Positions 1 through 62,323 of a stretch of DNA of 64,000 nucleotides are shown here, piece after piece. A program made the translations under genes and the position numbers. The notes under the pieces are model-generated. The model searched no databases, had not been told where the DNA came from, and worked only from the letters and a program-made list of their open reading frames with translations. The DNA is from Nemertoderma westbladi. Its lineage: Eukaryota > Animalia > Xenacoelomorpha. Every line of letters starts with the position of its first letter. Position 1 is the first letter of the stretch. The stretch is from the NCBI GenBank assembly GCA_032718475.1, contig JAUCBJ010003070.1, positions 62,001 to 126,000 on the forward strand, read 5' to 3'.

Positions 1-790
1 GCGTTTCTTATGATTGGGGGAACACATGACACTGCTCGAAGATTTTCGGAGGTGATGGAAATGTCAAATCCTGTCAATCATAGTCGCTGGTGAGTTACTC
101 TTAGGCGAATTACTGATGCTGTTAGAAACCTGGCGATTGGTAATTGTTACAATGAAGCTCAGAAGCTGCGTAATAAGTATGGGGCAGATACAGGTAACCC
201 TATCTCTGGTAATAGTGAGTCAATATATAATGTATCTGTTACTTTTGATGCCACTTGGCAGAAACGTGGGCATATGTCCCTTTACTGTGTGGCCTATGTG
301 ATGTCTGCTGATACCGGCGCAGTTCTAGATATTTTTGTTGTCAGCAAATCATGTTATATTTGCCGCCATTATTCTAAACTTTGTACTATACACGTACCGC
401 AACATAATTGTGACATAAATTTCCGTGGCAGTAGCAATGCCATGGAAACTTTTGCTGCGAAGCAACTTTGGGCAAGATCCATTGAAAGGAACAAGTTGCG
501 ATATACAGAGCTGCTAAGCGATGGAGACAGAGATTTTCAAAGAGCTCCGAGAGAACCCTCCATATGGCATCGAGCACCCAGTAAAGAAATATGAGTGTAT
601 TAACCATATCGCTAAACGAGTAACCAATGGCCTTGAATCAGTCCGTAAAGAAAAAAAGGATCGGTGGTGTGAATGGGCTCTCTCAGCCACGGATCAGACA
701 ACTAGCCAGTTATTACCGGAACACTGTTGTTCACCATGTCTCTTCTGTAGACTACCGAACAATAGAGAACCTCATTGACACCATAATACG
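1..790 (+). pseudogene. DDE transposase, 5' part (Mutator-like / Kolobok-Hydra type), frameshifted and interrupted by an LTR element
   Basis: Translated motifs FDATWQKRGH (from ~244), VLDIFVVSKSC, HNCDINFRGSSNAME, LSDGD and KYECINHIAKR, spread over three frames. The start lies upstream of the window. Confidence 0.85.
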
Positions 791-1958
791 TGTTCGCGCT
801 TTTAAGACCTTTGGCAGTTTAACCCGCCAAATCTATATGTCTTCTAGGTTATAAATCGACTTTAGCCTATGACAAGTATTTGACACAAATAAATCCAACA
901 TTAGCCGAAGCCAGTCTATGCGCGACCATTCACCCGCTGGATATACCCGGGGGACTGGATTTGGATGCTTTAATTTGATTGTGGTGCAGGCCTACCGTAC
1001 TATTCGATTGATCGTTAATATAATTCCTGACAAATATCATTCACTTTCGGGAAATATTAGCAGTTCCTTTAGGACGTGGCGCTCTATCTATATAAACAGA
1101 GCTATGGCTTACACTAAACACAACGGAATGGATTATAAGTTACACATAAGGCGCATTCTTTAGGAGATGCTTTGTTACGCGGACAAGCACATACAGACTA
1201 TTGCACACCGCTGCACACTGAATTGCCGATAGTCACTGATTTTAATCATACATAAAGAGAATAGCAACCGACATTTGTAGGGCCTATAAAATAGCATTCA
1301 ATTCACTACAAACCACGATAATATAAGTCGCAATTGCTATGTGTAGCCGGTCTCTCTAACCTTAGTGTATCAAGAAGATCGGGGTTTCTGATCGTTTATC
1401 GTTATTCTCCAAATAACAATATGTAAACAACCGATACAATTAATAACAAACAGCAAATAGCTGTAAATAATGTGCAATACGTACCGTACCGTTATGTGTT
1501 CTTAGTGTCTCGTACCGCTGTACCGGTAACAGTTATGTGTTCTTATAATTAAAGCCGTTCTAATGTTGGAATAATTCAGAATAATTCCATAGCCGATGTT
1601 CATGGCATCAGGAAAACCAACACACTGAACCCTGTGAGCTGTTGCAGGTAGCTTTCAACACAAAGAGGAAAGGCTCTCATTGGCAGAGTTCCATATTCCA
1701 CAGATTCCACGAATGTCTAAATGCCAAACCTCCCTAGCCTTTGCAGCCCATAGCCAACACAAGGCTAAATCGCTCTGATTGGTCGATCATTGTTCTGATT
1801 GGTTAATCGAACAGAACAAAGAGGCCATACGTACAGCAAATCAGCCAACCAGCGGGCAGATTGTGCCACTAGAAGCAACAGTTTAGAGGATTTGAGCGAA
1901 TGGGGGAAAACTGGATTACAAATGGAAAAGGCCAGTTATATCCCCAAAAGCTTTTACA
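791..1958 (-). repeat. 3' LTR of BEL/Pao element 1
   Basis: Near-identical to 11765-12932 (about 11 mismatches by eye). On the minus strand it is preceded by the purine-rich tract GGGAGCGG (1959-1966, putative PPT). Confidence 0.95.
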
Positions 1959-2036
1959 CCGCTCCCAGAAAATGGGATTTAATTATATAAAATATAAAAA
2001 ATCACAGTTTCTAAAATATAAAAATACTCTAAACAG

Positions 2037-3560
2037 TTAGTCTTTCTTGCGCGGACGGCGTTTACGCAGTTTCTTGAGGCTAGCAAGAGTCCTTTTCTCT
2101 TTTGGGGCGAGCCACTTTACTAGGAGGGCTATAACTCCTGGGTGAAGGGTGCAATACAATTGCATCAGAAGGTTTAAGGTTACGGTCGGTGTCTCGTCCA
2201 TTTCGATATGCTTCTTCTCGAGCTGATTTTCCTCCGCTTGTAGCTGGATACGTTCATCCAAAAACTCTCGCAGAGAATAGGATCGTCCAAGTTCGATAAC
2301 TTCTTAGAGATTCTGGATTTCCCGATCGAACTGAGATATAGTTACTTTGTTTACCGCTTGGACTTGCTAGTGCAATTTACGTTTATCTGAACAAGCGTAA
2401 GTTCCTTTTCTGATCTTTGTAGAATAGCGTCTAACTCATTTGGTACAACGCTCTCCGCCACTTTGGTGACAGGTTATATTGTGTTAAGCCGGGACGATGG
2501 TAAGGGTTAAACGGCGATATTAAATGTCTGCGTCCCAATCCGGCTAGGCAGGATAGGCTAATATCTAGGAAGCCCACAACCGGGGTGCCACCGACTAATC
2601 GTTCAGGTAACACTAGATCTTTGAGTAGTGAGTACAGCTCGGGAGGATCCGTCATACTAATAGGATCAAGAGTCTGAGGTCTCACTAGGGAATGAGGAGA
2701 TCTGATCGAGTATTCCGAAACTCTGATCATTGGTTTATTTAAGGATCGTCTGAGTCGAACGAGCGTAGGTGATACATCGAACAAGTTTCGCTCGAAACTC
2801 CCGTAAATATAGCGAGTAAAACTGTGTTTAAAGCAACGTCTCCGCGGATGTTTATGTCTTTCCGTTTGTTGGTTGGGTCTTGGGCATTCATCGCAATAAT
2901 ACCAAAAACGCACGTCTTGTAGGGGAAACGCGAGTGATCCTTCTCCAGCTTACAATATTCCTCCATCCGCTCGAAGCTATCCGGTACAACAGGCAGCGGT
3001 CGATCAGCGGCCAGACACACCACAGTGGAACAAAGCCGTTTGAATTCTACCTTGCGGTCATGATGCATACCTTGAGGATATCGAGTTTCTAGATTCTGTT
3101 GACTGGTAATATCGAGATAGGTTTCTCTCAAGAATTCCAGGTATTTGGTGAAGTCGCTGCGTTTATCCGGCTCTTCAACATCTGCACTTTCGAGTCGGTT
3201 TCGAATAGAATTTTCGTGTTCGAGTCTCAGTTTATCGCTCCTCTTCCGCTGGGTATGATATTTAAATAAACCCATTTCCCTTTTGGTGTCTATATCGTTC
3301 GTATCGTGTAGGTCGATAGGATGACCAGTAGTTAAGAAGTCCATATACGTACCATTACGAAGCGTATAGCGAGCGGTGAATTTTCTACAGTCCAATCCAC
3401 GCGCAAGTTGCTCCCGGGACACTGGCGGTTAGATATAACGACCACTGTCCTCCGTAGTAGTTGGACCAGCGTCGCCGCGTATCAAGCTATCAACAAATGC
3501 CTGTAAAGGTAGAGTATATCGCTCCCTGATACCAAGATCATCTTCTATCAACTCAGCCAT
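2037..3560 (-). pseudogene. Degraded extra ORF of unknown function in the env position of BEL/Pao element 1
   Basis: ATG at 3560 (MAELIEDDLG...) is in frame with the 227-aa ORF 2739-3422 through one TAA. It continues by apparent frameshifts into the 160-aa (2431-2913) and 74-aa (2037-2261) ORFs. No signal peptide or TM segment seen. Confidence 0.6.
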
Positions 3561-5205: not shown

Positions 5206-5598
5206 TTACGTTATGGAGTCCCTAGATATTTGTTGGATTAGGGAGGTGGTCGTGGGAAGAGTATCTTGCCTTCCATAGTTTCCGGACAGTTTTCGGTTTC
5301 TTTCCAGTAAACATAAACGACCAGCTGGGCGATTGAGTTGTTGTGTTACTTTCTCCGCTCCCTTGGCCTGTCTAATCTTCGCCGGGTTAAGATGGGGAGG
5401 CCATTCATCTTCTTTACTTAGGAAGTCGGGTTCACCTAACCAGTCTGGAGTATCTGTCAGTTCTTGAGGAGTTGCTCCTCTGGAGGCGATGTCGGCTAGA
5501 TTGATCGTCTCGGGGCAATGTCTCCATTGATCTACATTGGAGTTGATGTCGTCATTATCTGAGGAGTATGGTGTTCCCTCAGTTGGGTCGTCAACCAT
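5206..5598 (-). pseudogene. pol: Fused remnant of BEL/Pao RNase H C-terminus and integrase C-terminus
   Basis: WRHCPETINLADIASRG...WLGEPDFL...EWP (RNase H end) is joined directly to RPAGRLCLLE (the terminal integrase motif of BEL elements). Confidence 0.8.
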
Positions 5599-8500
5599 TT
5601 TCCATCGCTACCATTTTTACTGACCTTATGCTGTGTTCTCCTAGTTCATCCTGGGGGGTGGACAACGCGCCTACATAATAATCCGCTATTACGGTAGATT
5701 TCCAAACCTGCATAATTCCTGACATGTTTAGCTTAGTTCGGAACTTGGGTTGTCCAGCAAAGATGTCTTCGGCTAGTTCTTTGTCGATGAATGTTCCTGT
5801 GCTACCGGAGTCAAGGAGGGCGTTCACTATATAACTCCTTGTAGGTCCGTGGACCCTTAACTGTACAACAGGAAATTCTCGGATTCCTATATTGGAAGTT
5901 GGTGCTTTCCAAGATGGTTGTCTGTCAGAAGTAGTTAGGGGGAGCTCGCTGTCGGTGTCCTTTTCATACGTAAGTGCTCGATACACTGCGGTATTTGTCA
6001 GGTAACAGGATTCGTTTTCGTCGGAGAATTCGTCCGTATAGAATCCTTCCATCTCAGAATATTGGTCAGTGTCGTTCACATCACTGAATTGGACATGTAG
6101 TTCGGACTCACTTACCTGACTCGGGCTGTTTCGTTCGAATTCCGTGTGCAACAAGATATGATGTTTTGCGCCGCACTTTGCACACCTTGCGTCGGAGTAA
6201 CAGGTTCGCCATTGGTGTCCTCGTCTGAGGCAATTATAACATAGCCGCTTATCCCACATGACTTCACGTCTATCCTTTAATGATTTCTTCAGGAATTCAT
6301 CACACGTATTCAAACAGTGGGTCCCGTCACATAGCGCACATTTCGGTTTGATGTTACTTACCTTATTTTGAATAACAGTGTGCACACTCGTTCTTTCTTC
6401 GGGCTTTCTCACCTGGATTCTCTTGGGAGACCGAGGAGGAGTTTTTCTTACCTGTTCTCTCCTGTCATTGGTTCGAGACTTGAATTTACTTACCTGTTCT
6501 TTAGGCGTTTTATTGACATAATAAGATCTTTCAGTGTCTTTCCCGCTATCCTCTCCTTGAGAAGTCTGGCTTTCGCCGTCGTCTGTATAACACACTGGTG
6601 TTACCTTTCTCCTAGAGACGGGTTTCTCACTTACCTTGTTTTCCGGTGTCTTCTCTCTGGACTGCTTTATGAGCTGTAATTTCACTTCGCCATCCAAGAA
6701 TGACATGAGATCAGCCATGGTAGGGTCTCGTTGTTGTTGTTCCATCATATATAACACTTTCTTGTCCCAGCGTGTACCTACTCCACCCTTCGGTAAAGTA
6801 GAAGCCACTGCTCTAATAACCATAGCACTCTGATACTCATGAGACTTACCTAGCCAATCTAATTGTCTGCAGATCTCCTGAATCTCATCGGAAAACTCTA
6901 TAATCCCGCTGCTAATAAACTTTCGGGGCGCTACCAACTTTGCATACAAATACCCAGCTATGTTATTCCTATTACCATACCTGATGTTTAGTGTATCCCA
7001 AACTTGTCTTAATCCGTCTGGATGTCCAATAAACTTTAACGCCATTAACTTGGGAGATCCTTCCAAGCACTCGATGAGGGATCTAAGTTTCTCTCCATTA
7101 GATAGCACAGAGTTCTGTATGTTATCTTTGTAATATTCATTAAAAGGTAACCATTTCATCTCATCTCCATTGAACTTGACTATCTCTCCCACCTTTACCG
7201 CTTGGCGGGCTTCGGTTCTAGCCATTTGACGCGTAAAACTTTCTTGGGCCATCGTGTTATTTAATATCGAGTTATCGGTATATAAATTTCTCGGATTATG
7301 ATCAAGTCTATAGGGAATATCACTATCAACAGGTCTATAATTACCCTTAATAGGGTTTACTATAGGAGTTTCTACTTCGCTAGCAGTATAGATGCGTGTA
7401 GGCTCCACACCTTGCGCATGAGATACTTCAGACCTAACGGGTTGACATATTGTTACAGAGGGTGGTGATATACCCTTTTGTAAATTTACTAATTTATCGC
7501 GTTCTAGCGCGATACTTTGCTGCACTTCTTGCAACTCTAACCTACTTTCCTTTACGGTTCCCTTTAACTGTTGAACAGTCCCTTCTAACTCTCGGACCTG
7601 TTGGGGGGAGCGCACTCGATTCTCCTTCATCTCTCCGAGGAGAATGTCCATCTCCCGCCGTCTCTCATTTACCCAATCAACCGCAGAAGCGGGATCCGCC
7701 AACGTCGTAGCGGGCAGACGAGGGACTACGGGCGATATATCCTTTATATTTCGCTCGGAGTCCAGGACCGACACTGTTTCAGGGGTTGTTCCTCTAGGCA
7801 CAGATAATTTGGTGCTGTGTAAAGGGAATTTAAAGGTGGGTTCTGGGAGCACAGGTGTCTCTATCACCGAAGGGGTGATTTCAAGAACAGGCCTAATTAT
7901 TTCAGGCTCATCTACTATAGTAGGGAGTCTTTCTATTTTAATTATTTGGTCTGTGGGTTCTGTACTACCTAAATCTGTGTTAGTTAGTTGCCTTCTAACA
8001 GCTGGGGGCAAATCAGGCAATTTTTGATGGTGAGATGTTCTTCTACGCCTACTTAGACGAGATCTATTTCCTCCGCCTTCAGGATTGGTGGTATCGCCTT
8101 CCTCAGATGATGTATAACCTTGTCTTTTGGGAGTAGATCTATTCATCATCTGCATATTACTAGCTGTTAACTGTTTACTGAAGTTGTCTTGCTTCTCTTG
8201 AAGATTTTCCAACTCTAGTTGGGTTGTCTCTTCAGATGCCCTCCGTTCTGCTTCTGCCACTGCTATTTTTGCCTCTGCCGCTGCTATTTTTGCCTCTGCA
8301 GCTGCTTCTGCCACTGCCGCCTTTCTTTCTGCTTCTGCCACTGCTGCTGCCGCTGCTGCTATCTTTCTGTCTTCTATACGTTTTTTCTTTACTTGTTCTT
8401 CTTGAACCTTAGCGATGCGGATGCTTTCATTGAATTTAGCTTGGTTCGCAGCTAACCTATCCACATTGATTGCGTCCAACACACGCTGGGCTCCTTCACT

Positions 8501-9568
8501 ATTAGGGCTAAGCCCCTCTAGTCTTCTCCTCAACTCTTCATCTCCTACAAAACGTTGATAGTCCGACAGATAGATGTCAATGGCATCCCTCTTATGCGGC
8601 TTCTCTGCCGTCGCTTCACTTTCCACTTGGGAAAAAGGAGCGTCTGTTGATTCTCCATGGGTTGAGCGCTCATCCAGTTGGGCTTTCCACTGAGTCGTTC
8701 CTTGCACCTGGAGGCTCACCCGTTGAAACCAAGTCTTTACGGCAACTTGCAACGACGTGTCTTGTCTTCTTTTAGAAGCCTCCTCAAAGGCCGATAAAAT
8801 TAGCCTGATTCGTAAAATTCTTTCTCTAACTTGATAAAGCAGCTGTCCCTGCTCTTGAGGTCCTTGGGGTTGTTGAAACAGTTGTTTTTCTAATCGCTCC
8901 ATGGAGCTGAAGAATCCCTGTACGTATCCGGCTGCGGACCTCTTCCACACAGCTGGATCGACGGTTTCCTTGGTTACTCCCATCCTGTGTATATCTTCCC
9001 AGGCAGCTTCTGATAAATCAAACGGGAGTCCGGGTCCGGGGAAGTTCCATTGCGACTCGACAATAGACTTCAGTTCTTCCCTTGTATATCCCGCATAACT
9101 ATCTTTAGTCGATCGCTTACTTCTCGCCCAATCGATCTGGTGTTCTTCCACCGCAATCAATAACCTAGTGAGTACGGCTGCAGGAAGGATGAGAAGGGGA
9201 TCCAAATAAACCGCATCCGTCATCTTTGCTCCGCGCTCGGGTGTCAGCTCTACAGTATCCTCACTACTGGAGCTGTCGGGCCGTTGAGAAATAAGTTCTT
9301 GGCTCGCGGGTTGTTGTTGTTCCGCTGCTTCTTGGTCCCGCTTGACCTGAGCTCTAGTGCCTATGATAGACCTACGGTGTTGGACTAGCCTAGGGTCTGA
9401 TATTACTACTGTAGGGAGGGCCTTTCTTACAGTAGGAGGGGACTTAGACTTTGGTCTGGGATGTTCTATACTTTGATCTTGATCACAGATCTTTTTAAGA
9501 CACTGTCTAACAGTAATTCTAACACTCTCTATGAGACTATCTGACAGTGTTTGTTGTGAGTCAGACAT
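5591..9568 (-). CDS. gag: BEL/Pao Gag-protease polyprotein (1325 aa) with a long N-terminal extension
   Basis: Coiled-coil AEA repeats; capsid-like DUF1759 region (FNGDEMKWLPF...KLRSLIECLEG...RYGN); three Cys/His knuckles (CALCDGTH, CYNCLRRGHQWRTC, CAKCGAKHH); aspartic protease LLDSGSTGTFI. Confidence 0.92.
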   Translation of the reverse strand: MSDSQQTLSDSLIESVRITVRQCLKKICDQDQSIEHPRPKSKSPPTVRKALPTVVISDPRLVQHRRSIIGTRAQVKRDQEAAEQQQPASQELISQRPDSSSSEDTVELTPERGAKMTDAVYLDPLLILPAAVLTRLLIAVEEHQIDWARSKRSTKDSYAGYTREELKSIVESQWNFPGPGLPFDLSEAAWEDIHRMGVTKETVDPAVWKRSAAGYVQGFFSSMERLEKQLFQQPQGPQEQGQLLYQVRERILRIRLILSAFEEASKRRQDTSLQVAVKTWFQRVSLQVQGTTQWKAQLDERSTHGESTDAPFSQVESEATAEKPHKRDAIDIYLSDYQRFVGDEELRRRLEGLSPNSEGAQRVLDAINVDRLAANQAKFNESIRIAKVQEEQVKKKRIEDRKIAAAAAAVAEAERKAAVAEAAAEAKIAAAEAKIAVAEAERRASEETTQLELENLQEKQDNFSKQLTASNMQMMNRSTPKRQGYTSSEEGDTTNPEGGGNRSRLSRRRRTSHHQKLPDLPPAVRRQLTNTDLGSTEPTDQIIKIERLPTIVDEPEIIRPVLEITPSVIETPVLPEPTFKFPLHSTKLSVPRGTTPETVSVLDSERNIKDISPVVPRLPATTLADPASAVDWVNERRREMDILLGEMKENRVRSPQQVRELEGTVQQLKGTVKESRLELQEVQQSIALERDKLVNLQKGISPPSVTICQPVRSEVSHAQGVEPTRIYTASEVETPIVNPIKGNYRPVDSDIPYRLDHNPRNLYTDNSILNNTMAQESFTRQMARTEARQAVKVGEIVKFNGDEMKWLPFNEYYKDNIQNSVLSNGEKLRSLIECLEGSPKLMALKFIGHPDGLRQVWDTLNIRYGNRNNIAGYLYAKLVAPRKFISSGIIEFSDEIQEICRQLDWLGKSHEYQSAMVIRAVASTLPKGGVGTRWDKKVLYMMEQQQRDPTMADLMSFLDGEVKLQLIKQSREKTPENKVSEKPVSRRKVTPVCYTDDGESQTSQGEDSGKDTERSYYVNKTPKEQVSKFKSRTNDRREQVRKTPPRSPKRIQVRKPEERTSVHTVIQNKVSNIKPKCALCDGTHCLNTCDEFLKKSLKDRREVMWDKRLCYNCLRRGHQWRTCYSDARCAKCGAKHHILLHTEFERNSPSQVSESELHVQFSDVNDTDQYSEMEGFYTDEFSDENESCYLTNTAVYRALTYEKDTDSELPLTTSDRQPSWKAPTSNIGIREFPVVQLRVHGPTRSYIVNALLDSGSTGTFIDKELAEDIFAGQPKFRTKLNMSGIMQVWKSTVIADYYVGALSTPQDELGEHSIRSVKMVAMENG

Positions 9569-9699
9569 GTTTGATTGTACAGTTGAATGCCTACTGCTAT
9601 ATTACAGTTAAAGCAAGTCTAGTAATTCAGTATCACTGTTAGCCTAGTAATTAATTACCGATATCATTACTCTATGTAGCGTGATATATATATAATATA

Positions 9700-9960
9700 T
9701 TAGAATACCGGTATGCTTATAGTATATATAAGTATTATTACAGACTAGGTTTGTCACAGAATACCGGTAGGTAATTTCAGCACAAATATATATAAATATA
9801 TAATAGGCCTATCGTGAATACCGGTATACAGCTTACACTTATAATGTATATATATAAGTATAATTACAGACTAGAATTAATTACAGAATACCGGTATATA
9901 ATTTAGCCTAAATTTATAGAAATAAATATAATAAGCCTATTGTAAATACCGGTATGTCAA
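9700..9960. repeat. Degenerate AT-rich tandem repeats carrying ATACCGGTA in the 5' leader of element 1
   Basis: Five recurring (GA)ATACCGGTA motifs at roughly 55-70 bp spacing with similar flanks. Confidence 0.55.
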
Positions 9961-10908
9961 TTATTTTAGAATAATTGAATTTCTGAATTTTAGGGGTTAC
10001 TTGGTTACTTTACTTACTTTATTACCGTTATTTGAGCAGTAGTCCAACTGATATTGAGACCTAATTGTTGTATGGCAGGCCTACTATTTATAAATCGTTT
10101 GAGTTGATTTATAATATATATATACCCGTTTAATGGGTTTTGTCAATATTTGAAATAAATGTTATTATTTCTGGGGGGAGTCACTACACAGAAGCTGTGC
10201 GCTCTCAGTGAAGTGCTACTTGTTGGACACTAAAACAAATAATTCTAATTTACCTAAGTTACTTAATACTACAAATTACGTACAATTCGGGGTGAGATTA
10301 CAATCTCTAAATAAACACAAAAATTACAAGTACGAATTTTTAGGGTAATTTTACAAGAAGTCTACTAACCAGCCTAACAAAGGGTTAGAATATCTGGTTA
10401 TTACAACGGACAGGTTACTACGGTATTTGAAAATAATAAGTAGTAGTAAATATACTGCGTTGTCCAGATAGGAAAATACCACCGTCTGACGACTTATAGC
10501 CGTATCGCTATAAGTACTACGTTATGTATCACGGAGTGTTCCTACCCAGAAGTGAATTACCGCGGTCTACCAGAACCAACGTGCCTATTAACCACTTTAC
10601 AACACAAATATACTGCCTACACACTAATCACCTTCGGAAAGCACTGTACACTAAACCCTAAATTAGGTACAAGTACTTGTACAACAAATAATCAGTAGTT
10701 AAAATACTTGAACAGCTAAAAGAACCACGGTATCTGCCGGAGTGACCAAAGCACAAAATCTCCAGTCTTTACCTACGCCAAGCAGCCCTGATGTAGTACC
10801 GGGGTTAGTTTAACTGTAACGGTATGTATAACAAACACAATTACTGTAGGAATAATCTTGGGGATATGAATATTGCGAATAATCGCATAAACTCTGAATA
10901 ATAAATAT

Positions 10909-11475
10909 TACGCTACGCGTACAGACTACTCAAACAAAATGCAGACCAAATACTACAGACTACTATCAAGCCTAAACAAACTACGGTATATGCAGACTCC
11001 GAAATGGTTAGTTAGTATGCGTTCTAACCTAGTAGTACGACTTATTCTTTCAGAGGGGGTTTACCTCACAGCACTGGAAGCCCCTACGTTCCCAACTGGC
11101 ACTTTATCGGACATACACTCTACACACACCGAAATTTCCTCAGACCTAACAACAGCCAGACAACTATCCAGCCTACAAATTATCTAAATAAGAATTATAC
11201 GCTACCTGTACAGACTACACAAACAAAGTACAGACCAAACGATGGCAGACTACTATCAAGCCTAAATAAACTACAGTATATGCAGACTCCAAAATGATTA
11301 GTTAGTATGCGTTCTAACCTAGTAGTACGACTTATTCTTTCAAAGGGGGTTTACCTCACAGCACTTGAAGCCCCTACGTTCCTAACTAGCACTTTATCGG
11401 ACAGATGCTCTACACACACTGCAATCCGTTCAGACTTAACAACAGTTAGACAACAGTCTAGCCTACAAATTGTCT
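10909..11475. repeat. Tandem duplication (~290-bp unit, 2 copies) in the 5' leader of element 1
   Basis: Both copies contain ACAGACTAC...GTTAGTATGCGTTCTAACCTAGTAGTACGACTTATTCTTTC...AGCCTACAAATT. Confidence 0.85.
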
Positions 11476-11753
11476 GTACAATCTGAGCAGGCTTACACGC
11501 CTTCTGCTCAATATTGGCCTACAAATAAATAAAAACTGACAGAAATAAGTAAAATCTCAATAAAAAACCAGGGCTGCAGTCCCTGATTAATTATTAAAGA
11601 ATAGTATAGAAAGGTATATAATTATCAAATCGAATAATACTGCTGTACTTGTACTGTTGTAAGTACCGGTCCGGGTGATCAGGCAGTCAGGCCTACTGGT
11701 TACCGGTCGACCGGTACTATCAACTTGATTGCTTACGCCGCAATCAAGAAGCT

Positions 11754-11764
11754 ATAACTGTTAC
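11754..11764 (-). promoter_or_regulatory. Non-tRNA primer-binding site GTAACAGTTAT, complementary to LTR-internal ATAACTGTTAC (12500-12510)
   Basis: It abuts the 5' LTR end, has no TGG, and forms a perfect 11-nt inverted repeat with 12500-12510 (1526-1536 in the other LTR). Confidence 0.75.
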
Positions 11765-12932
11765 TGTTCTCACTTTTAAGACCTTTGGCAGTTTAACCCG
11801 CCAAATCTATATGTCTTCTAGGTTATAAATCGACTTTAGCCTATGACAAGTATTTGACACAAATAAATCCAACATTAGCCGAAGCCAGTCTATGCGCGAC
11901 CATTCACCCGCTGGATATACCCGGGAGACTGGATTCGGATGCTTTAATTTGATTGTGGTGCAGGCCTACCGTACTATTCGATTGATCGTTAATATAATTC
12001 CTGACAAATATCATTCACTTTCGGGAAATATTAGCAGTTCCTTTAGGACGTGGCGCTCTATCTATATAAACAGAGCTATGGCTTACACTAAACACAACGG
12101 AATGGATTATAAGTTACACATAAGGCGCATTCTTTAGGAGATGCTTTGTTACGCGGACAAGCACATACAGACTATTGCACACCGCTGCACACTGAATTGC
12201 CGATAGTCACTGATTTTAATCATACATAAAGAGAATAGCAACCGACATTTGTAGGGCCTATAAAATAGCATTCAATTCACTACAAACCACGATAATATAA
12301 GTCGCAATTGCTATATGTAGCCGGTCTCTCTAACCTTAGTGTATCAAGAAGATCGGGGTTTCTGATCGTTTATCGTTATTCTCCAAATAACAATATGTAA
12401 ACAACCGATACAATTAATAACAAACAGCAAATAGCAGTAAATAATGTGCAATATGTACCGTACCGTTATGTGTTCTTAGTGTCTCGTACCGCTGTACCGG
12501 TAACAGTTATGTGTTCTTATAATTAAAGCCATTCTAATGTTGGAATAATTCAGAATAATTCCATAGCCGATGTTCATGGCATCAGGAAAACCAACACACT
12601 GAACCCTGTGAGCTGTTGCAGGTAGCTTTCAACACAAAGAGGAAAAGCTCTCATTGGCAGAGTTCCATATTCTACAGATTCCACGAATGTCTAAATGCCA
12701 AACCTCCCTAGCCTTTGCAGCCCATAGCCAACACAAGGCTAAATCGCTCTGATTGGTCGATCATTGTTCTGATTGGTTAATCGAACAGAACAAAGAGGTC
12801 ATACGTACAGCAAATCAGCCAACCAGCGGGCAGATTGTGCCACTAGAAGCAACAGTTTAGAGGATTTGAGCGAATGGGGGAAAACTGGATTACAAATGGA
12901 AAAGGCCAGTTATATCCCCAAAAGCTTTTACA
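11765..12932 (-). repeat. 5' LTR of BEL/Pao element 1
   Basis: Direct repeat of 791-1958; reads TGTAAAAG...GAACA on the minus strand. Confidence 0.95.
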
Positions 12933-13445
12933 ATACGCGAGGTGAAAGCTACTGTATTTCATTACACGAATTACCCAGAATCTCAGCGGGAAAGAAAACA
13001 TGAGGATTGTCCAATACGGTGGTGCAAAGCGATCCAGAAAGACCAAACCTACAAGGACAAATCCTTCATCAAGCCGGAGTGGCATGCCCACATTATGCCC
13101 GTATACAATAGACTTACAGATCGGAATCTATTGAAGCGTTGCCTTCCTGGTCTCACGCAGAACCAAAACGAATCTATTCATGGTCGACTTTGGAACAAAT
13201 GTGGGAAGGATAAGTTCCAGAACAAAATTGGAATTCCATGCATATTATACTGCACTTGTGCACAACAGGGGTTCATCTGCAGCTCAGATACTGTATATGA
13301 AGTTGGGCCTGGGGCCTGGGTGAAGATGGCGACAGGGTGCAAGGTGAGAGACCGGAAGAGAACTTCACGAAGCCTCCTCAAACGCAAATCAAAGAAATTC
13401 CGCCCGGAAAACAACGATTCCGCTTACAAACCTGGAGGGTTTTAG
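12933..13445 (+). pseudogene. DDE transposase, 3' part
   Basis: Removing the LTR element and one TSD copy restores the in-frame read IDTIIR-EVKATVFHY. Motifs HEDCPIRWC and LLKRCLPGLTQNQNESIH; ends in YKPGGF. Confidence 0.85.
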
Positions 13446-20075: not shown

Positions 20076-22370
20076 TTACTTATGAAGTTTACATGGAGAT
20101 TTGTAATCTCCCATCTTGTTTCTAGTCTCCTCAAGGAGTACGAGACATTGTACGGGTCTGTCAACAGTATGTCCGTCAATTGTCCATACAGTCACAGTCC
20201 GTATTACACCACCTGAAGTCAGGTGTGTGGTCAAAATGACTCCAGTCAACCAAAACCGTCTCTTTAAGTTGGTCTCTGCCAATAATTAATGAACACCACG
20301 CTTCAGACACCGGATAGTAAGATACCAGGTGGTCCTGGGTGAAATAGAGGGCAAATAATGCTTCTGTCATACATCCCAAAACTTATTGGCTAACAACTGA
20401 GTGATTTTTCAAGCTTTGTCGCCGTAACTGTCACTGTCCATAGGTACAGAAGTGGGCAACAGTATCATCGGCGCCTGCATAAGTAGGTGCGCTGGTGTCA
20501 AGGCAAACTGAGATTGTTTGTCGTCTGGAATCAAAGCGATGGGTCTGGTATTCAGTACCGCTTCGATCTCTATCAACAACGTAGTCAGTTGGTCGTCTGT
20601 TAATATGCGTTGCGTAGGTATTACTTTCGCAATTGCCGTCTTGATGGATCCAATTAATCTCTCCCAAACTCCGCCTCTCCATGGACTGTTGGAGGGGTTA
20701 AGGTTCCACACGATCTTGTGGGGACGTAGTTTGTCGGAGATTTGATTGTGGTCCAACTTCTTTATGGCTCTGGAGATTTCGTTCCTCGCACCCACAAAGT
20801 TGGTCCCTTGGTCGCAGTGTATGGATTTGACCAATCCGCGTCTAGCGATAAATCGCTGTAAAGCTAGGATAAATGCGTTGGTGGTTAGACGTTACGTGTT
20901 CAATATGAACTGCTCTACTGGCCATGCAGGTAAAGATCAGTCCCCAATGTTTCACCTGTACGCGTCCACGTTTTGCGTTTATATGTCCAAAACAGTCAAT
21001 CCCCGTCTCAGTAAATGGGGGTCTAAACGCCTGTAATCTAGCTAGTGGTAGTTCACTCATTTCCTGGCGTCCTATCCTCGAGTGTACCTTCTTACAGATA
21101 ACACAGTTGCATGTTACTGAACTCAATGCCTTACAAGGTCTAATCAGTACAAACTTCGAGTGTAAGTGTGATAAACAGTGATGTCTACCTATGTGTTTGA
21201 TTTGTACATGTGTGTCCAGTATCATAGCACGCTGTAACTCATGGTGTTGCGGTATGATGATAGGATACCTAAAGTCAATAGTTAGTCAGTCAAAGTAGTC
21301 AATCAATAGTATCAATAGTAGTCAGTAGTATTTAGTATTTATCAGTAGTATTTATCAATAGTATTTCCGGTAGACAATCGGTCGAAAGATACAGAAAACA
21401 GTCTGGCGAATCTGGTGAAATCCCCCGCGGAACATCTTCTGAAAGATTCGTTGGAACATCTGGTAGAATGTCTGGTGAGACGTCCGGCATAATGTCTGGT
21501 GGAGTGTCCAGGTCATTGGACTTAACTTGTCCTTGTTTCCTTTTGACCTTGGTGCTGGCTTTAGCTTTCGACTTGACCAGTGTCGATTTTTATCTCGGCA
21601 CCTTCTGGTATAGTGCTCGATGTCGCGTCGAATAGCGGCAGCCATTCATCCGATGGTCGTTGTAGGAAGTCGGGTCCTTTAAACCAGAAGGACTTATTGT
21701 CCGGTTTACAAAAGTCTATGGGTAACATTCCCTGTGATGCGATGTCAGCCGGGTTCAGTTTCCCTGGGCAGTGACGCCAGTCCTGTTTGAGCGACCTGTT
21801 TAGTATTTCAGACCGTCTGTTGGTCACGAAAGTCTAGAAATGAAAAGTCTCGTTATTGATGTACCAAAGCACTAACATTCCATCAGTCCAATGAATGTGA
21901 CTTTCAAGTTGGTCTCCAGTTCACGCTGGACTAGACTCACGATGTCGGTAGATATCGTCCCGGCTTGAAGCTCTCCCCGAGGCACTGTCATATACTTCAG
22001 AGGCATTGTTTTAGCTTTTGAAGTAAAGAAAGATACCTCGTAACTGTCCAATGTAACTTGTCTATGTAGGTATAAGGTAACCCCAAGCCCATCCTTGCTA
22101 GTGTCACTGGAGCTGTGAAGCTCCAGATCCGCAGGAAAGGTGGCCTGTAAAGGAAACTATACCCTCGGGATGGTATAGTCTTGTAGGAGCGTCAGTTGTG
22201 CCTCCCAGTCCCTCCATTGCTCGGCTAGCTTTTCTGGGATGGGATCGTCCCATTCCAGTCCGGCTTGCCAAATGCTGCGGAGTATGATCCTTGCGTGTAG
22301 GATCACTGGACTGATAAAAGGAGGGTCATACAAACGACTCATGGTCAATAAGCAGGTCCGCTTGGTCTGC
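20076..22370 (-). pseudogene. pol: BEL/Pao pol fragment (RNase H and integrase), degraded
   Basis: Motifs TKRTCL...LYDP...LEWDDPIP, WRHCPGKLNPADIASQG, HHCC zinc finger, GIDCFG, CDQGTNFVGA, WERLIGSIK and RPVQCLVLLE, with multiple stops and frameshifts. No LTR identified. Confidence 0.9.
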
Positions 22371-29603: not shown

Positions 29604-32600
29604 TGTAGTGATACAAACTCGCCACACTACATGGCTCGCCCCATATGCCAGCAGATACTCAGGGACTGCGGTACTGTAGGGATGACTCACCAGTATTCTT
29701 GGACTACGCCCTGACTCAGACTCAGGATACCACCGACCGATAGACAGCAGTTAGCTTGTCCAGTGGTCAGTACAGTTAGGTCTCCAGTCATAGGGCGCAC
29801 TGCCAGACAGACGGCCCAGCACAGCATTGTTGTTGTTTGTACTTGTGTGGTCACTACCTGTATATTATACGCCCGACATTATTCCGGCTCCACAGTTAGT
29901 CGTGACCTCCATACATGGCGCAGTTGTGTTTGTGTTGGTGAACTGAAACCACCACGCAATCCTAAACCTACGGACCTACCGGTACTCCTGTCTGCATAAC
30001 CCCAAACCCCGAGTAACGCAGAAGCGAACTGATGGCCGACCACAGAACTCCCTCCGAACAGGGCTCGGACGACACTGAACCCGCCATCGACGTTCTCAAC
30101 CACTTGCGTCAGGAGTTGGCAAAACGCGACGTTGACGCCACTCAACGCGAGGCGGCCGCAGACGCTCGCCTCGATAAACTAACTCAAATGCTGATACACC
30201 AGCAGGACAGTGCAGCACGCGAGCGCGCCGAGGCCAATGCGCAGATCGCGCAACTGTTGGGCGCACTCCAATCGGGCGCGGGTGTGACCAATCCCGGCGG
30301 GACCGGTCCGATACAACCCGCACCGACACGTCAACCACAACGCCGCGTTATCGATATCCGCGATCTCGAGAAAATCGATAGCGATGTCGACTTCACCTCG
30401 TTCCGTCGGTGGCGAGAGGCCTGGCGCGTCCACGCGCACCGCCAACAAGCATCCACATTCCCACGTGACGAACAGGTTTATTCGCTAATATCCGCAATTG
30501 GTCGAGACCTACAACAAACTCTCACCGTGACGCTCAACGTCGACATCGACGACGACGCAACCACCGTGGAGACGGTTCTCGACGCCCTCCAGGCGCACCT
30601 CCGGTCAAAGCGCAGTATCGCCATCGATGGAATAAAGTTCCACGACCGGAGACAGGGCCCGAACGAAAACTTCGACTCGTTCCGGATCGCCCTGGAGGAA
30701 CTCGGCGACGCCGCGGAACTTTGCGAACACTGTCGGAATCGACAGATCGTGACGCAGATCCTGGTCGGCATCCGTTCGTCGGAGACCCGCACCGAACTCC
30801 TCAAGGTTCTTCCACAACCTTCCCTCGAGGATTGCGTACGCATCTGCCAATCGATGGAGGCGAGCGAGCGTAACGACTCAATAATCGGGCGTGGGACCCC
30901 GGTTACGAAACTCACGTCGTCGTACAAACGTGGGCGTTCGACCTCCCGGCAAACCCCACCTCCGCCCCAACACGCATCTAATGCCTCCGGAGTATGCCGA
31001 AACTGTGGGCGCAGTCACCCTCCGGGAAAGAGTAACTGCCCCGCCAAAGACACGAAATGCCATAACTGTGGAAAGTGGGGCCACCTCCAGGCAGTCTGTC
31101 GTTCCGACTCGGTACATAAACCCAGTTCCAGGGGCGGCAAAGGAACGGGTAAACCCGCCTCGAGAGTGAACACGATCACGGGCGGCGGACCGATAAACTC
31201 AATAACATTCGCCTGCGACCTCCCCCGCATCGAGGTCGAGGTGCGCGGCGTGGACGATGATGACGTATGCGGAATCATACGCAATGTCCTCGCGGATAGC
31301 GGCGCTGCAGCCACCGTGCTAAGCCAGGAGATTTTCTACCGGATGGGCGGCTGTAACCAGGACCTTACTCCTCACCCCACTGCGGATCTACGCGCCGCCA
31401 ACGACCTTCCACTGGAGATAATGGGAGTTTTTGCTGCCCGAGTTTTCTTCGCAGGAAACTCGGCGATCGTGAACATCGGCGTCTCCCCGGAAGTCGACGG
31501 ACTCATCCTCTCCTTCCGGTCGCTCGTCGATCTCAAACTCCTCCACCCCAACTTCCCTCATCCCATCGCCTCTGTAGCATCTGTAACCGATCCTACGGCA
31601 CATTTACGCGCGAACCTCCTCAACGAATTCGCCGATGTATTCGACGACACCGATCGACCGCTCGGTACGATGGCCGGCGAGCCGATGCACGTTGAGTTGA
31701 AGGAAGGCGCCACCCCGTTCCACGCAAACGGCGCGAGGCCTATACCATTTGCGCTACGGGACGAGGTGCGCGCCCACCTGGACGAGATGGAACGACGGGA
31801 AGTCATCGAGCGGGTCACCGAACCTACTGACTGGGCCCACCCGCTCACTGTCGCTCGCAAACCCAATGGGAAACTCCGGGTTTGCGTCGACCTCCGCCAC
31901 CTGAACGACCAGGTTAAGCGGCCGTATTACCCCACCCCGAGCCCGCGGGTGGCGGTTACCGGGATATCCACGACCGCTAAGATATTCTCGGTATTTGACG
32001 CCGCCGCCGGCTATTGGCAGGTCCCCCTCGACCCAGCATCCCAACTCCTCACCACTTTTGTAACCCCCTGGGGACGGTATAAGTATAGGAGGGGCGTAAT
32101 GGGACTCATATCGAGTGGGGACGAATTCAATCGCCGGGGCGACGACGCATTGCGTGGACTTCCCGGTATGGTGAAAGTCGTCGACGACGTCCTTCTATAC
32201 GACAACAACCTGGACGACCACATCGCCAGTGTCCGACGGTTCCTCACGCGATGCCGTACAGCCGGCATCTCACTCAACCCTGACAAAATACAACTCGCCC
32301 AACCCAAAGTTAAGTTTGCAGGCTACATTGCCGGGGCCGACGGCATCCAGGCAGACCCATCCAAGGTCCGCGCCATAACGGATTTCCCTCGACCAACCAA
32401 CATTACAGACTTGAGGAGCTTTGTTGGGTTGGTCGAGCAACTCACCCCATTTTCGACAGACATCTCGGCTACGATGTCCCCCCTGCGCCCCCTCCTCCGT
32501 TCCAGGAATCCATACGAGTGGAACTCTGACCACGAGGCGGCATTCGAGGCGACCAAACGCACACTCGTCTCCCCACCCATCCTCGCTTCCTTCGATCCGG

Positions 32601-34788
32601 AGCTCGACACTAAGCTCGAGACTGACGCCTCAAGGAAGAACGGGTTGGGATACGCACTACTTCAGCGGCACGGGACCGACTGGAGGTTGGTAGAATGCGG
32701 TTCACGGTTTATTTCGGAAACCGAGTCGCGCTATGCGATGGTGGAGCTGGGGCTCCTCGCTGTTGCGTGGGCCGCCCACAAGTGCCGTCTCTACCTCGTG
32801 GGACTCCCACATTTCACGCTGGTGGTAGACCACCAGCCCCTGGTGTCCATCCTCGACCGCCAGACGCTGGATGCCAACGACAACTCACGGATCCAGCGAC
32901 TCAAGTCGAAACTCTCCTCCTTTGTACTTACTACCATCTGGAGGAGAGGAAAGGATCACCGCATTCCCGATGCTCTGTCCCGCTCCCCTGTCGACGACCC
33001 ATCCGACGATGATCTTGTTGACGACGGAGACATGGGCCACTACCTATGTGCTGTAACGTCACAGGTGGCTGCAACAATTGTGGGGGACGAACTCGATCCG
33101 GATGACGACCACCCCGATCTACTCCTCCAATCTTTGGCTGCAATGGCTCGGGCCGACTCCGATTACGTCGACCTCCTCGGCGCCATTCGCACCGGATTCC
33201 CGCCGCCGTCCCGCCAACTTCCTGGTGTCCAACCCTTTTGGTCGTTACGCGATGAACTTTCATCCGACCGCGACCTCGTCCTCTACGGACAACGGATTGT
33301 AGTCCCGCGGGCCTCCCGCTGGGACACTCTAGCGCGCCTCCACGCCGCACACCAAGGAGTCGAGAAGACGCTACGTCGCGCCCGCCAGACAGTGTACTGG
33401 CCCGGACTGACAAACGACGTTCGGACCACCGTCGAGTCCTGTGAGCCCTGCCTCACTCGACGCCCCAGCCTCGCGAAGGAACCCATGCTACGGGAGCGCG
33501 AGGCCACAAGACCATTCGAGGAAATCTCCGGAGATCTCTTCGCACTCGACGGTCACAACTTCCTCGCCATCGCGGATCGTTACTCCGGTTGGCCCGAAGT
33601 CTACAAATACGGGAATCCCCCAACCTCTGCTTCTACCGCTACGCATGTGAGGGACGTATTTACGCGTTTTGGCGCCCCCTTACGTTTCGCTTCCGACGGC
33701 GGTCCACAATTCGCTGGAAAGAATTTTACCGACTTCCTCCAGGTCTGGGGGGTCGATCCCGTAGTATCGTCTCCCGAATATCCCCAGAGCAATGGCCACG
33801 CGGAGTCTGCCGTGAAGGCACTCAAGGCGTTGCTCACCAAGACCGGGGGGAAAATGAACTCAGATGCTTTCCAGGAAGGACTCCTAGAACTCAGAAATTC
33901 CCCCCGCGCCCATGGAATGTCGCCGGCCCAGATTCTCTTTGGGCACCCCATACGGTCGCGAGTGCCAATGCACAGCCGCGCTTTCCTCCGGGAACACCAA
34001 CTGACCCGCGCGGAGCTCGACGAGGCACTGCCCTCACTCCACGGCACCCAGATGGCTGCCTACAATCGCGGAGCCAAACCCCTTATTCCATTCGCTGTAG
34101 GGGACCCGGTCCGAATTCAAAACCCAGTCTCGAAGCGATGGGACCGCACTGGGATTGTCACGGAAACAAGACCCAACCGGAAGTACACCGTACGTACCCC
34201 TTCCGGTCGATGCCTCACCCGGAACCGCCGCCACCTCATCTGGGACACCGCCGCTACCGGCACACGAGAGTGCACCCCACTCACACCAACAGCCATCGGG
34301 ATACCGAGGGACAACGGCCCAAGATCACCTGCAACGCCACCGAAGCGCGTACACTGGGCTGACACTCCCCCCACTCAACAACCCGATCGGCCTCGTAGAG
34401 CCTACCCCTCCCGCGTGAGGCGTCCCCCCAACAGATTCTGAGAGTTCGTTGACCCCGCAACGAACTAGAAGGGGGGTGTAGTGATACAAACTCGCCACAC
34501 TACATGGCTCGCCCCATATGCCAGCAGATACTCAGGGACTGCGGTACTGTAGGGATGACTCACCAGTATTCTTGGACTACGCCCTGACTCAGACTCAGGA
34601 TACCACCGACCGATAGACAGCAGTTAGCTTGTCCAGTGGTCAGTACAGTTAGGTCTCCAGTCATAGGGCGCACTGCCAGACAGACGGCCCAGCACAGCAT
34701 TGTTGTTGTTTGTACTTGTGTGGTCACTACCTGTATATTATACGCCCGACATTATTCCGGCTCCACAGTTAGTCGTGACCTCCATACA
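29604..34788 (+). mobile_element. Full-length Ty3/Gypsy LTR retrotransposon (Mag-like)
   Basis: 312-bp LTRs at 29604-29915 and 34477-34788 that appear identical; TSD CATAC; PBS TGGCGCAG at 29916; PPT AGAAGGGGGG at 34467-34476. Confidence 0.97.
30032..34441 (+). CDS. gag-pol: Gag-Pol polyprotein (1469 aa): capsid, two CCHC knuckles, protease, RT, RNase H, integrase
   Basis: CRNCGRSH and CHNCGKWGH knuckles; LADSGAA protease; LRVCVDLR and VVDD in RT; TDAS/DH/DALS in RNase H; HHCC, SDGGPQF and SNGHAE in integrase. Domain order is PR-RT-RH-IN. Confidence 0.97.
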
Positions 34789-48005: not shown

Positions 48006-49052
48006 TTAGGGCGGTGCGTTTTTTACTTTTTATCGATTTCATTGTTCTACCGGTGCACAAAAGTTGCCAAATGGTAAAAAAATAAGGCAAAAAAAATTCT
48101 TTCAATTTCATCTATATCTTCACGGATCCCAAGAGGGTTGAAATTTTGTGCCATCGCGATGCACCATAATGAAATGTATAACAATATAACACATTGATGA
48201 AAGATCAATGACTCAAAAAAGAACTTCCTGCATGCATCAAATGTCATGAAATGGGTCCAAACTTTGTTAGATACCAAAATTTTAACTTTTGGGTCAAGGG
48301 AAGTAGTGCCACAGGCACATGGCCAGAACCTACCATTTGGCGCAAGTGATGATTATTCTCAATTTTCGCGATGGCCAACTTTGATTTATCCTACTGCATT
48401 CATATTATGCTCATTAGAACCGCAATGGCCGATTTAGTGGGGGTAGACACCTTCAAAACAAACGTAGAGCGAATAGTTCTTGAGATATCGCAGAAAATGT
48501 GAAGTCCGGCACAAGTCTACATTACCGCCTTGATGTGATATGGACAAATACACAACAAATGATATTTTGAATTATATCAAGGAATCAAATTCGCTCTATG
48601 CTTATTTTGATGGTGTCTACCCCCACTAAATCGGTCATTGCGGTTCTAATGAGCATAATAATAATGCCGTAGGAGAACTAAAAGTTGTCCATCACCAAAA
48701 TTGAGAATAATCATCACTTGCGCCAAAGAGTAGGTTCTGGTCATGTGCCTGTGGCACAACTTCCCTTGATCCAAAAATTAAAATTTTGGTATCTAACTAA
48801 GTTTGGACCCATTTTATGACATTTGATGCATGCAGGAAGTTCTTTTTTGGGTCATTGATCTTTCATCAATGTGTTATATTGTTATACATTTCATTATGGT
48901 GCATCGCGATGGCACAAAATTTCAACCCTCTTGGGATCCGTGAAGATATAGATGAAATTTAAAGAAAGATTGAAATTTATTTACCATTTGGCAACTTTTG
49001 TGCACCGGTAGAACAATGAAATCGAAAAAAAGTAAAAAACGCACCGCCCTAA
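48006..49052. mobile_element. Palindromic (foldback) DNA element with ~480-bp arms
   Basis: TTAGGGCGGTGCG...CGCACCGCCCTAA with long, highly similar inverted arms; flanking AGAGC duplication at 48001-48005 and 49053-49057. Confidence 0.9.
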
Positions 49053-53475: not shown

Positions 53476-54131
53476 TGTGACGGGATCGAGTCTGAGATCC
53501 CGACCGGGTAAGATTGTACGCGTCACTTGGCCGCTGGGCTGCTGAGCTATTATCTTTTGCCGAAGGCCGTTGGGGAAAATAACAGAGTTTGTTTCTCAGT
53601 ATTAATAATCTCAGAAATAATAGCACAGTCAGATGTATACAGGTATAGTAACAATAATCAGCATAGCATAAATGACGACAGTAGCACATATGAAATGATG
53701 GTCAAAACTATGCCAGTCCGCAACTGTGTGATAATGAACTGACCGGTAAATCAGTAATCAGAGTAACTATATGATTGATACATATTGGATTGAGCTCTAT
53801 GCTACTACTGTGGCCTTTGCTACCCAATGGATGCCCTTCTATCCTTCCTCACGTGCTTCCCTGCCCTCTATTGGCTTATATACTAATTGTCACTTTGACA
53901 CTCCCTGTAGGTGCTACTCCCAGATGCTAGCCTCGCTAGCTGGGTTGTCCCTCTTAGGTGGTTTGACCTCTCACCTCTCTCTGTGGCTTAGGGCGTGTGT
54001 CGCCCCCCCCCCCCCCCGAGTTGGTTATGAGGCGAGATTATTTATTGGTAATTTCTCATCGCCAACTATATTGGTAAAATGCCACTGGTCCCATTTTCGG
54101 TGGGTGGTGTAGGGAATTGAATCCGCTTACA
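53476..54131 (-). repeat. 3' LTR of BEL/Pao element 3
   Basis: Direct repeat of 61097-61588 plus 62171-62323. Confidence 0.92.
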
Positions 54132-61085: not shown

Positions 61086-61096
61086 ATAGTTTTGAC
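61086..61096 (-). promoter_or_regulatory. Non-tRNA primer-binding site GTCAAAACTAT, complementary to LTR-internal ATAGTTTTGAC (61322-61332)
   Basis: It abuts the 5' LTR end and forms a perfect 11-nt inverted repeat with 61322-61332 (53701-53711 in the other LTR). Confidence 0.75.
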
Positions 61097-62323
61097 TGTG
61101 ACGGGGTCGAGTCTGAGATCCCAACCGGGTAAGATTGTACGCGTCACTTGGTTGCCGGGCTGCTGAGCTAATATCTTTGGCCAAAGGCCGTTGGGGAAAA
61201 TAACAGAGTTTGTTTCTCAGTATTAATAATCTCAGAAATTATAGCACAGTCAGAAGTATACAGGTATAGTAACAATAATCAGTATAGCATAAATGACGAC
61301 AGCAGCACATTTGAAATGACGGTCAAAACTATGCCAGTCCGCAACTGTGTGATAATGAACTGACTGGTAAATCAGTAATCAGAGTAACTATATGATTGAT
61401 ACATATTGGTTTGAGCTGTACACTACTGTGGCCTTTGCTACCCAATGGATGCCCTTCTATCCTTCCCCACGTGCTTCCCTGCCCGCTATTGGCTTATATA
61501 CTAATTGTCACTTCGCCACTCCCTGTAGGTGCTACTCCCTGATACTAGCCTCGCTAGCTGGGTTGTCCCTCTGAGGTGGTTTGACCTCAATTCAATTCAA
61601 TTTCAATTCAATATTTATTTATTTTCCCAAATGTTACGTACATACAGAAATATTACATACACAAACAGTTAAATTTGATAATACAATATTATATATGATT
61701 TGTAGAACTCTATTTGGGACTGGAGACTGCAGGTAGCTCTAGGGGGCTAGTGAGTCGCAGCCACCAGGTGGGGGGGGGGGGGGGGGGGGGTGGTCTGCAA
61801 GCAAGCCTAAAAGATATAATAAGATTAAAAAGAAAGTATATGAATATTATATTTAAAAATTGAATAAATGGTACAAATAAAATACTGTATTATAATTTAA
61901 TTGGGGGTGTAATTTAACATGGAGACATTTACTGTATTTTATTTTCCAATACTGGTGTTGACGAAAAGTTATAATTTGAGATGGGTGCACGTAGGGGCTT
62001 GACGGGTTATGCTGTAAATTATATGCTAAAGTGATTGAAGTGGTTCATTTTTTAGTTTCTTGCAGAATACAATTTTGTTTGGAAGAGTTTTAATATTTTG
62101 ATTTAATGTATTCCATATTTGGGGACCGTTGTAACTTAGAGATTTTTGACCAATGTGGAGATTAAATCTCTCACCTCTCTCTGTGGCTTAGGGCGTGTGT
62201 CGCCCCCCCGAGTTGGTTATGAGGCGAGATTATTTATTGGTAATCTCGCATCGCCAACTATATTGGTAAAATGCCACTGGTCCCATTTTCGGTGGGTGGT
62301 GTAGGGATTTGAATCCGCTTACA
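61097..62323 (-). repeat. 5' LTR of BEL/Pao element 3, interrupted by a LINE
   Basis: Matches 53476-54131 apart from the 61589-62167 insert. Confidence 0.9.
61589..62167 (-). mobile_element. 5'-truncated CR1/L2-group LINE 3' end inserted in the LTR
   Basis: Minus-strand ORF tail SLSYNGPQIWNTLNQNIKTL...FCKKLK; (GAATT)n tail; absent from the other LTR; flanked by a CTC duplication. Confidence 0.7.

Follow-up and report, generated by a model that had tools for sequence, protein, structure and literature searches.

The first internal bases of a group of BEL/Pao LTR retrotransposons are complementary to a segment of their own LTR, and this self-pairing is a real feature that the group has in common. 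It is present in two elements, hereafter elements 1 and 2, of the window (the whole stretch of 64,000 nucleotides analysed here) and, in the same arrangement, in relatives from other DNA records. Judged from the sequence, element 1 would very probably be self-primed in one form or another. The form that we favour is that it likely primes with its own RNA, from an 11-mer probably lying inside the transcript and not at its first base.

Two elements of the window and their primer sites

Element 1 is best classed as a young, non-autonomous and internally deleted BEL/Pao LTR retrotransposon (Table 1). Its two LTRs differ at 11 of 1168 positions, and the LTR edge is fixed independently because the 5-bp target duplication CGTAT flanks both outer ends. 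The gag-protease frame matches DUF1759 (E 1e-9), and its protein matches contain the Pfam families PF05380 (6 of 6) and PF03564 (5 of 6). The protease is followed, in another frame, by the remnant of a BEL RNase H (best E 2.5e-9). No reverse transcriptase or integrase match was found anywhere inside the element, a point on which an earlier note on this DNA was silent; because both enzymes are absent, element 1 would need a helper. The search for close relatives of its protein gave one representative at E up to 1e-30; the matches listed are 24–48% identical over short stretches, and no close relative was present among the protein collections searched.

The internal region of element 1 opens with GTAACAGTTAT, directly after the terminal CA, and no TGG site is present. 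The exact reverse complement lies at LTR 423–433 in both LTRs, with C as the preceding base; the pairing ends at 11 nt and is the longest complementary stretch between LTR and leader among those listed. The earlier note had described a non-TGG site directly after the 5' LTR, an exact reverse complement at 12510–12500, a pairing of exactly 11 nt and the C in front of it, and all of this holds now that CGTAT sets the LTR edge. Its estimate of the probability of a chance match (about 3e-4) agrees with our counts: 6 of 20,000 dinucleotide shuffles match at offset 0 (63 of 20,000 at any offset from 0 to 5), and 33 of 101,980 background 11-mers have a match. The Gypsy element of the window, which the note had named as an internal contrast, indeed has an ordinary TGG site: its internal region starts with TGGCGCAGTTG, and its self-match is only 5 nt long. 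This Gypsy element (29604–34788, plus strand) is intact and a very recent insertion; its two 312-bp LTRs are identical, it has a single frame of 1474 aa, and its relatives are at most 56% identical.

Element 2 (62323–53476, minus strand) is flanked by the target duplication CAATA and shows the same arrangement as element 1. Its internal region opens with the 11 bases GTCAAAACTAT, which are exactly complementary to LTR 421–431; 2 of 20,000 shuffles gave such a match. The 11-mers of the two elements have 7 of 11 letters in common, and all four differences are matched in the primer sites. The coding part of element 2 consists of degraded BEL gag and protease pieces, which are not significantly similar to those of element 1 (best blastp E 0.069), and a tree of gag-protease sequences does not settle the positions of the two elements. 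The insertion of about 580 bp in its 5' LTR lies at 61589–62170.

Table 1. Features of elements 1 and 2 and of the Gypsy element (positions in the window)
Feature	Position	Strand	Remarks
Element 1, 5' target-site duplication	12933–12937	-	CGTAT
Element 1, 5' LTR	11765–12932	-	1168 bp, TG...CA
Element 1, candidate promoter motifs	12602–12776	-	motif scan; three CCAAT and initiator-like TCAGT
Element 1, predicted self-primer 11-mer	12500–12510	-	ATAACTGTTAC, LTR 423–433
Element 1, predicted U5 stem-loop	11778–11817	-	just upstream of primer site; z -2.8
Element 1, primer-binding-site position	11754–11764	-	GTAACAGTTAT, flush with LTR-terminal CA; no TGG
Element 1, perfect palindrome in leader	11701–11716	-	16 nt; 20 of 5000 shuffles
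Element 1, open gag-protease frame	5591–9601	-	1336 aa; DUF1759, BEL-type zinc knuckles, LLDSGS protease motif
Element 1, BEL RNase H C-terminal remnant	5208–5607	-	other frame
Element 1, open frame in 3' internal region	2739–3428	-	229 aa
Element 1, short purine-rich tract	1959–1966	-	GGGAGCGG, before 3' LTR
Element 1, 3' LTR	791–1958	-	same 11-mer at 1536–1526
Element 1, 3' target-site duplication	786–790	-	CGTAT
Gypsy element, TGG-type primer site	29916–29926	+	internal contrast; self-match 5 nt
Element 2, 5' LTR	61097–62323	-	insertion of about 580 bp; 11-mer ATAGTTTTGAC at 61332–61322; CAATA
Element 2, primer-site position	61086–61096	-	GTCAAAACTAT, flush with CA
Element 2, 3' LTR	53476–54131	-	656 bp; 11-mer at LTR 421–431, TATATAA 171 nt upstream

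Several features of element 1 lie outside the pairing itself. Its leader (9602–11700, minus strand) is 2.2 kb long and contains internal duplications of 290 bp and 126 bp. No homologue was found for the 229-aa frame, for which feature searches gave weak leads (at most 0.90) to N-terminal domains of tyrosine recombinases. Around the 11-mer (12469–12521, minus strand) lies the motif TAAGAACACATAAC, of which a second copy follows 41 nt downstream, with repeated CGGTAC units that are able to pair with the leader palindrome. Divergent copies in run X1, whose contigs are possibly DNA, span 28 of 30 bins, none of them covering 12444–12600; one X1 contig spans the primer site, close to the contig end. 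Scans of viral contigs gave no matches.

Relatives with and without tRNA-type sites

Our scan for BEL RNase H motifs found 116 loci in metagenomes, of which 80 have long flanks, and 62 in genome records; further searches added 31 longer regions. The contigs that carry these loci are presumably animal DNA. BEL/Pao pol is present in 59 of the 62 loci from prokaryote genome records (L117–L178; three are without a BEL match), which suggests that animal DNA was binned into these records. LTR ends could be set for 52 elements with two LTRs, with circular-overlap contigs, partial LTR pairs and duplicate loci excluded, and a single rule was applied to all of them: a match at offsets 0–8, either contiguous or spliced at a GTRAG donor.

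The rule separates the elements by the type of their primer site. Self-matches of at least 11 nt occur in seven of the nine non-TGG elements and in none of the 43 TGG-type elements (longest contiguous match 7 nt), counts to be read in the light of 52 comparators that are not independent, coming from few hosts, with 21 from one assembly and many copies of the same family. The nine include by choice L157, whose site is G-TGG-AAAA, and L129, a degenerate copy of TGG type in which no match occurs. Six of the seven matches run across a predicted splice junction (L120, L135, L157, L176, L227 and L257) and one is contiguous (L123); the less clean cases are L120 (offset 8), L123 (offset 4) and L227 (LTR end inferred). 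By inspection, L245 has a match of 10 out of 11 across the junction, with one mismatch, and the spliced signature is also present in three loci with no LTR pair (L042, L045 and L130). The earlier note had counted a loss of complementarity in related families against its proposal; it is present in seven of the nine non-TGG relatives.

The spliced relatives, including the three loci with no LTR pair, have a primer site that pairs over 11–12 nt with the exon–exon junction that removal of a predicted GT-AG intron would leave (L135 1000–1862, L176 1000–1770, L157 1484–1848 and L120 4290–4678 on the plus strand; L257 and L227 on the minus strand). The donors of the spliced matches are GTGAGT or GTAAGT and the acceptors are pyrimidine-rich. 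For four of these elements, 11 nt were reached at 0, 1, 0 and 3 of 2000 random internal sites. The sister elements L135 and L176 differ at the exon end (TAA to CAC) and at the primer site (TTA to GTG), the two having changed together. As in elements 1 and 2, the final letters of the matched LTR segments are AC, except that L135 and L176 have ACT there. L135, L176 and L227 have long open pol frames of 1587–1950 aa. All seven spliced relatives have a poly(A) signal, AATAAA or ATTAAA, 0–31 nt after the 11-mer, and 44–149 nt of LTR remaining after it, against 735 nt in element 1, which unlike them has no AATAAA near its 11-mer.

L123 (5836–6155, plus strand) is an intron-less relative with two LTRs and a contiguous 11-nt self-match at offset 4. 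A splice-built primer was ruled out for elements 1 and 2, in which the best spliced match (9 nt) is shorter than the contiguous 11 nt. Two further candidates were set aside: the self-match of L003 looks like a terminal inverted repeat, and the LTR end of L075/L076, a possible non-TGG case, cannot be fixed. Scanning for the signature with no known LTR ends is noisy, with matches in 10 of 39 loci outside the tree group described below. A filter for sites starting with GT left none of these 39 and six of the 13 loci within the group; it kept a spurious site in L135 (2518) and missed the true sites of L135, L176 and L120.

The RNase H tree (43 rows) places eight self-labelled rows, including element 1, together with six unlabelled rows on one side of a branch with an SH-aLRT support of 85, and none of 500 label shuffles was as clustered; the tree comes from a quick search, the branch is unstarred, element 1 fills 58 columns (28% of columns), and the labels of L045, L042 and L123 were assigned after the first tree. 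L227, L245, L236 and L239 lack the motif and are absent from the final tree. L123 is sister to L042 and L135. The clustering suggests a single origin of the putative self-priming signature. A tRNA-type motif before gag was found in none of the 14 loci of the group on this side of the branch.

Origin of the primer

The cut and priming steps of the scheme that we favour for element 1 are modelled on Tf1, in which the first 11 nt of the mRNA are freed by RNase H cleavage to act as primer (PMC7175516, available portion). Transcription would start upstream in the LTR, and the 11-mer would fold onto the primer site. RNase H from an autonomous helper would then cut after ...UUAC and leave a 3'-OH, from which the helper's reverse transcriptase would copy the LTR end. 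Copying of the primer would regenerate the site in each cycle and would thus keep both sequences matched. Most relatives would form the same 11-mer by splicing an LTR intron; in elements 1 and 2, as in L123, it is already complete in the LTR. More broadly, one BEL/Pao branch may have given up tRNA priming and may cut an internal 11-nt primer, mostly built by the spliceosome across an LTR intron so that splicing would license replication; elements 1 and 2 would be members that lack the intron and always contain the primer. We regard this wider proposal as evenly poised between right and wrong.

The strongest rival is the strict Tf1 model, in which transcription begins at the A of 12510 and cleavage after 11 nt releases the primer. 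The earlier note had proposed this start together with self-priming, and the two parts fare differently. Self-priming independent of tRNA gains from element 2, from the seven of nine against none of 43 and from the matched letter changes; the start site is what the spliced relatives and the upstream TATA boxes argue against. The 11-mer exists only after removal of the GT-AG intron in the six spliced relatives with two LTRs, and therefore their RNA would have to start upstream of the donor; a start at the 11-mer would leave a first exon of 3–6 nt, which is unlikely. TATA boxes lie 215–240 nt upstream of the 11-mer in three of the seven spliced relatives (L135, L176 and L227), none being found upstream in the other four, and TATATAA lies 171 nt upstream in element 2. 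The motif scan of element 1 found no TATAWA upstream of the 11-mer and none near -30, and located TATAA at -11, CCAAT boxes at -266, -246 and -147 and an initiator-like TCAGT at -92 (predicted function), all relative to the 11-mer.

Other observations favour the strict model. Elements 1 and 2 each pair over 11 nt and no further, both 11-mers lie within C|ATA and at nearly equal LTR positions (423 and 421), element 1 folds best when its RNA is started at 12510, and in L123, which has no intron, an AT-rich GATAAATT lies about 30 nt ahead of the 11-mer. But CATA occurs nine times in the LTR of element 1, and the length of 11 nt does not mark a start, because the spliced relatives show it too, as does L123, where C|A is missing from the start of the 11-mer. 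We consider a transcript start at the A of 12510 doubtful and the strict Tf1 model as a whole unlikely. A start elsewhere had been taken by the earlier note to speak against self-priming; a start upstream would not do so.

Predicted RNA structures bear unevenly on the pairing. Whole-region folds of element 1 give the primer helix mean pair probabilities of 0.81 (the RNA started at 12510) and 0.63 in two of eight cases and about 0 in the other six, and forcing the helix costs 0.4–3.6 kcal/mol; in element 2 the probability is 0.84–0.97 in 14 of 16 folds. Tf1 needs two further duplexes beside the primer helix, the three-duplex 'pretzel' (bioRxiv 10.1101/2022.12.06.519325, available portion). Flanking duplexes of this type do not exceed shuffled sequences in element 1 (262 of 300 and 195 of 300 as good) or in element 2 (36–145 of 300). 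Longer pairing upstream of the 11-mer was ruled out (p 0.10–0.72; combined p 0.27 over six elements), as was the U5 hairpin as a distinctive mark, its z of -2.8 falling within the range of 22 tRNA-type LTR ends (-3.7 to +1.0). The 16-nt leader palindrome may be a site of RNA dimerisation. No Rfam family scored above threshold at 11400–13000.

The primer might instead come from the 3' end of an RNA, with the 11-mer of the 3' LTR or a short LTR transcript being trimmed and pairing in cis or in trans. The poly(A) signals just after the 11-mer in the seven spliced relatives favour such a source, but a signal in that place implies that the natural RNA end is further downstream, so that a cut would still be needed. 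Moreover, no such hexamer adjoins the 11-mer of element 1 or element 2 on either side, and the primer site begins with G and not with a run of T. We judge a 3'-end primer improbable.

Slightly less credit goes to the proposal that the pairing forms an RNA structure for regulation or packaging while priming is done by a small RNA or a host tRNA fragment, which for element 1 would end in AUAACUGUUAC. Half-tRNA primers are known from copia elements (PMC6317226, available portion), but here the segment ends in AC and not in CCA, lies exactly at the primer position, varies between families and always matches its own LTR, and no TGG site is present in the group on that branch of the RNase H tree. 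No tRNA gene is present in the window, and a tiny tRNA screen, of two tRNA-like genes in the first 116 loci, gave a best match to the 11-mer of 6 out of 11. Chance, or a template-switching scar in defective copies, is very improbable: elements 1 and 2 are both defective and the sequence had been seen before the hypothesis was framed, but two families reach 3e-4 and 1e-4, none of the 43 controls has such a match, and the three relatives with long open pol frames show the pairing too.

Known or predicted self-priming elements, and other repeats of the window

The ICTV describes Belpaoviridae as primed by host tRNA, with an 18-nt site for tRNA-Arg or tRNA-Gly, LTRs of 0.2–1.2 kb, an element length of 4.2–10 kb and a poorly understood replication (PMC8742986). 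Element 1 agrees with this description in its TG...CA LTRs of a length within the given range, its target duplication, and its DUF1759 gag, zinc knuckles, protease and BEL RNase H remnant, which lie in gag-pol order. It differs in its length of 12.1 kb and in the lack of a tRNA-Arg or tRNA-Gly site and of reverse transcriptase and integrase. The tract GGGAGCGG has seven purines in 8 nt, where a polypurine tract of about 10 nt would be expected. Element 1 is thus classed as BEL-derived by its proteins and as departing from the ICTV description at the primer site.

Elements with no tRNA site have been described elsewhere, namely Tf1/Tf2 of S. pombe, Tj1 and the Tf1/sushi group of Ty3/gypsy chromoviruses, to which plant Tcn1 belongs (available portions of PMC7175516, PMC4600332 and bioRxiv 10.1101/2022.12.06.519325). 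According to these, the Tf1/sushi group resembles element 1 in having a site of about 11 nt directly after the LTR-terminal CA that pairs with LTR-derived RNA; there RNase H cleavage yields the primer, a step that element 1 would take by analogy. Element 1 belongs to a different superfamily, with BEL/Pao proteins and no chromodomain seen; unlike Tf1, it has flanking duplexes not above shuffles, a start site that is probably upstream, and no autonomy, and most of its relatives need splicing to form the 11-mer. In outline it would prime like Tf1; it is not a member of Tf1/sushi, and it probably differs in the location of the primer. For the plant Ty1/copia TAR lineage (Houba, Osr-1), self-priming was predicted from a complementarity of at least 10 nt that begins 0–5 nt after the LTR, which elements 1 and 2 also show; that lineage consists of copia elements of plants, and a splice-built primer does not appear in the available portion of its description (PMC6317226).

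The earlier note knew of no description of self-priming in BEL/Pao, and our search of full-text literature likewise returned no such report, though an earlier mention is possible; priming is not discussed in the available portions of PMC554778, PMC3118150 and PMC8556966 (term search). If a self-priming BEL branch is confirmed, the mechanism would have arisen a third time, in addition to the Tf1/sushi gypsy elements and the predicted copia TAR lineage, and a primer that is internal or built by splicing would be mechanistically distinct from that of Tf1. One would expect such elements to evade silencing by 3' tRNA fragments directed at primer sites, and annotation software that relies on a tRNA site would overlook them or put them in the wrong place. 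Because the 11-mer predicts the 5' end of the strong-stop cDNA exactly, BEL priming can be tested directly.

Other repeats of the window touch on the same families. The first 30 nt of the element 2 LTR (62294–62323, minus strand) resemble a tRNA T-arm and also, in reverse complement, a stretch that precedes gag in L075/L076 (in L076 at about 9118–9147, minus strand). L075/L076 is a tandem BEL that lacks a clear TGG site. A third BEL fragment at 20097–22366 (minus strand) contains RNase H and integrase with stops and frameshifts and is cut by a repeat at 22368; it has no LTR pair and groups weakly with the RNase H remnant of element 1. The stretch 48006–49052 is a separate element with terminal inverted repeats of 470 bp.
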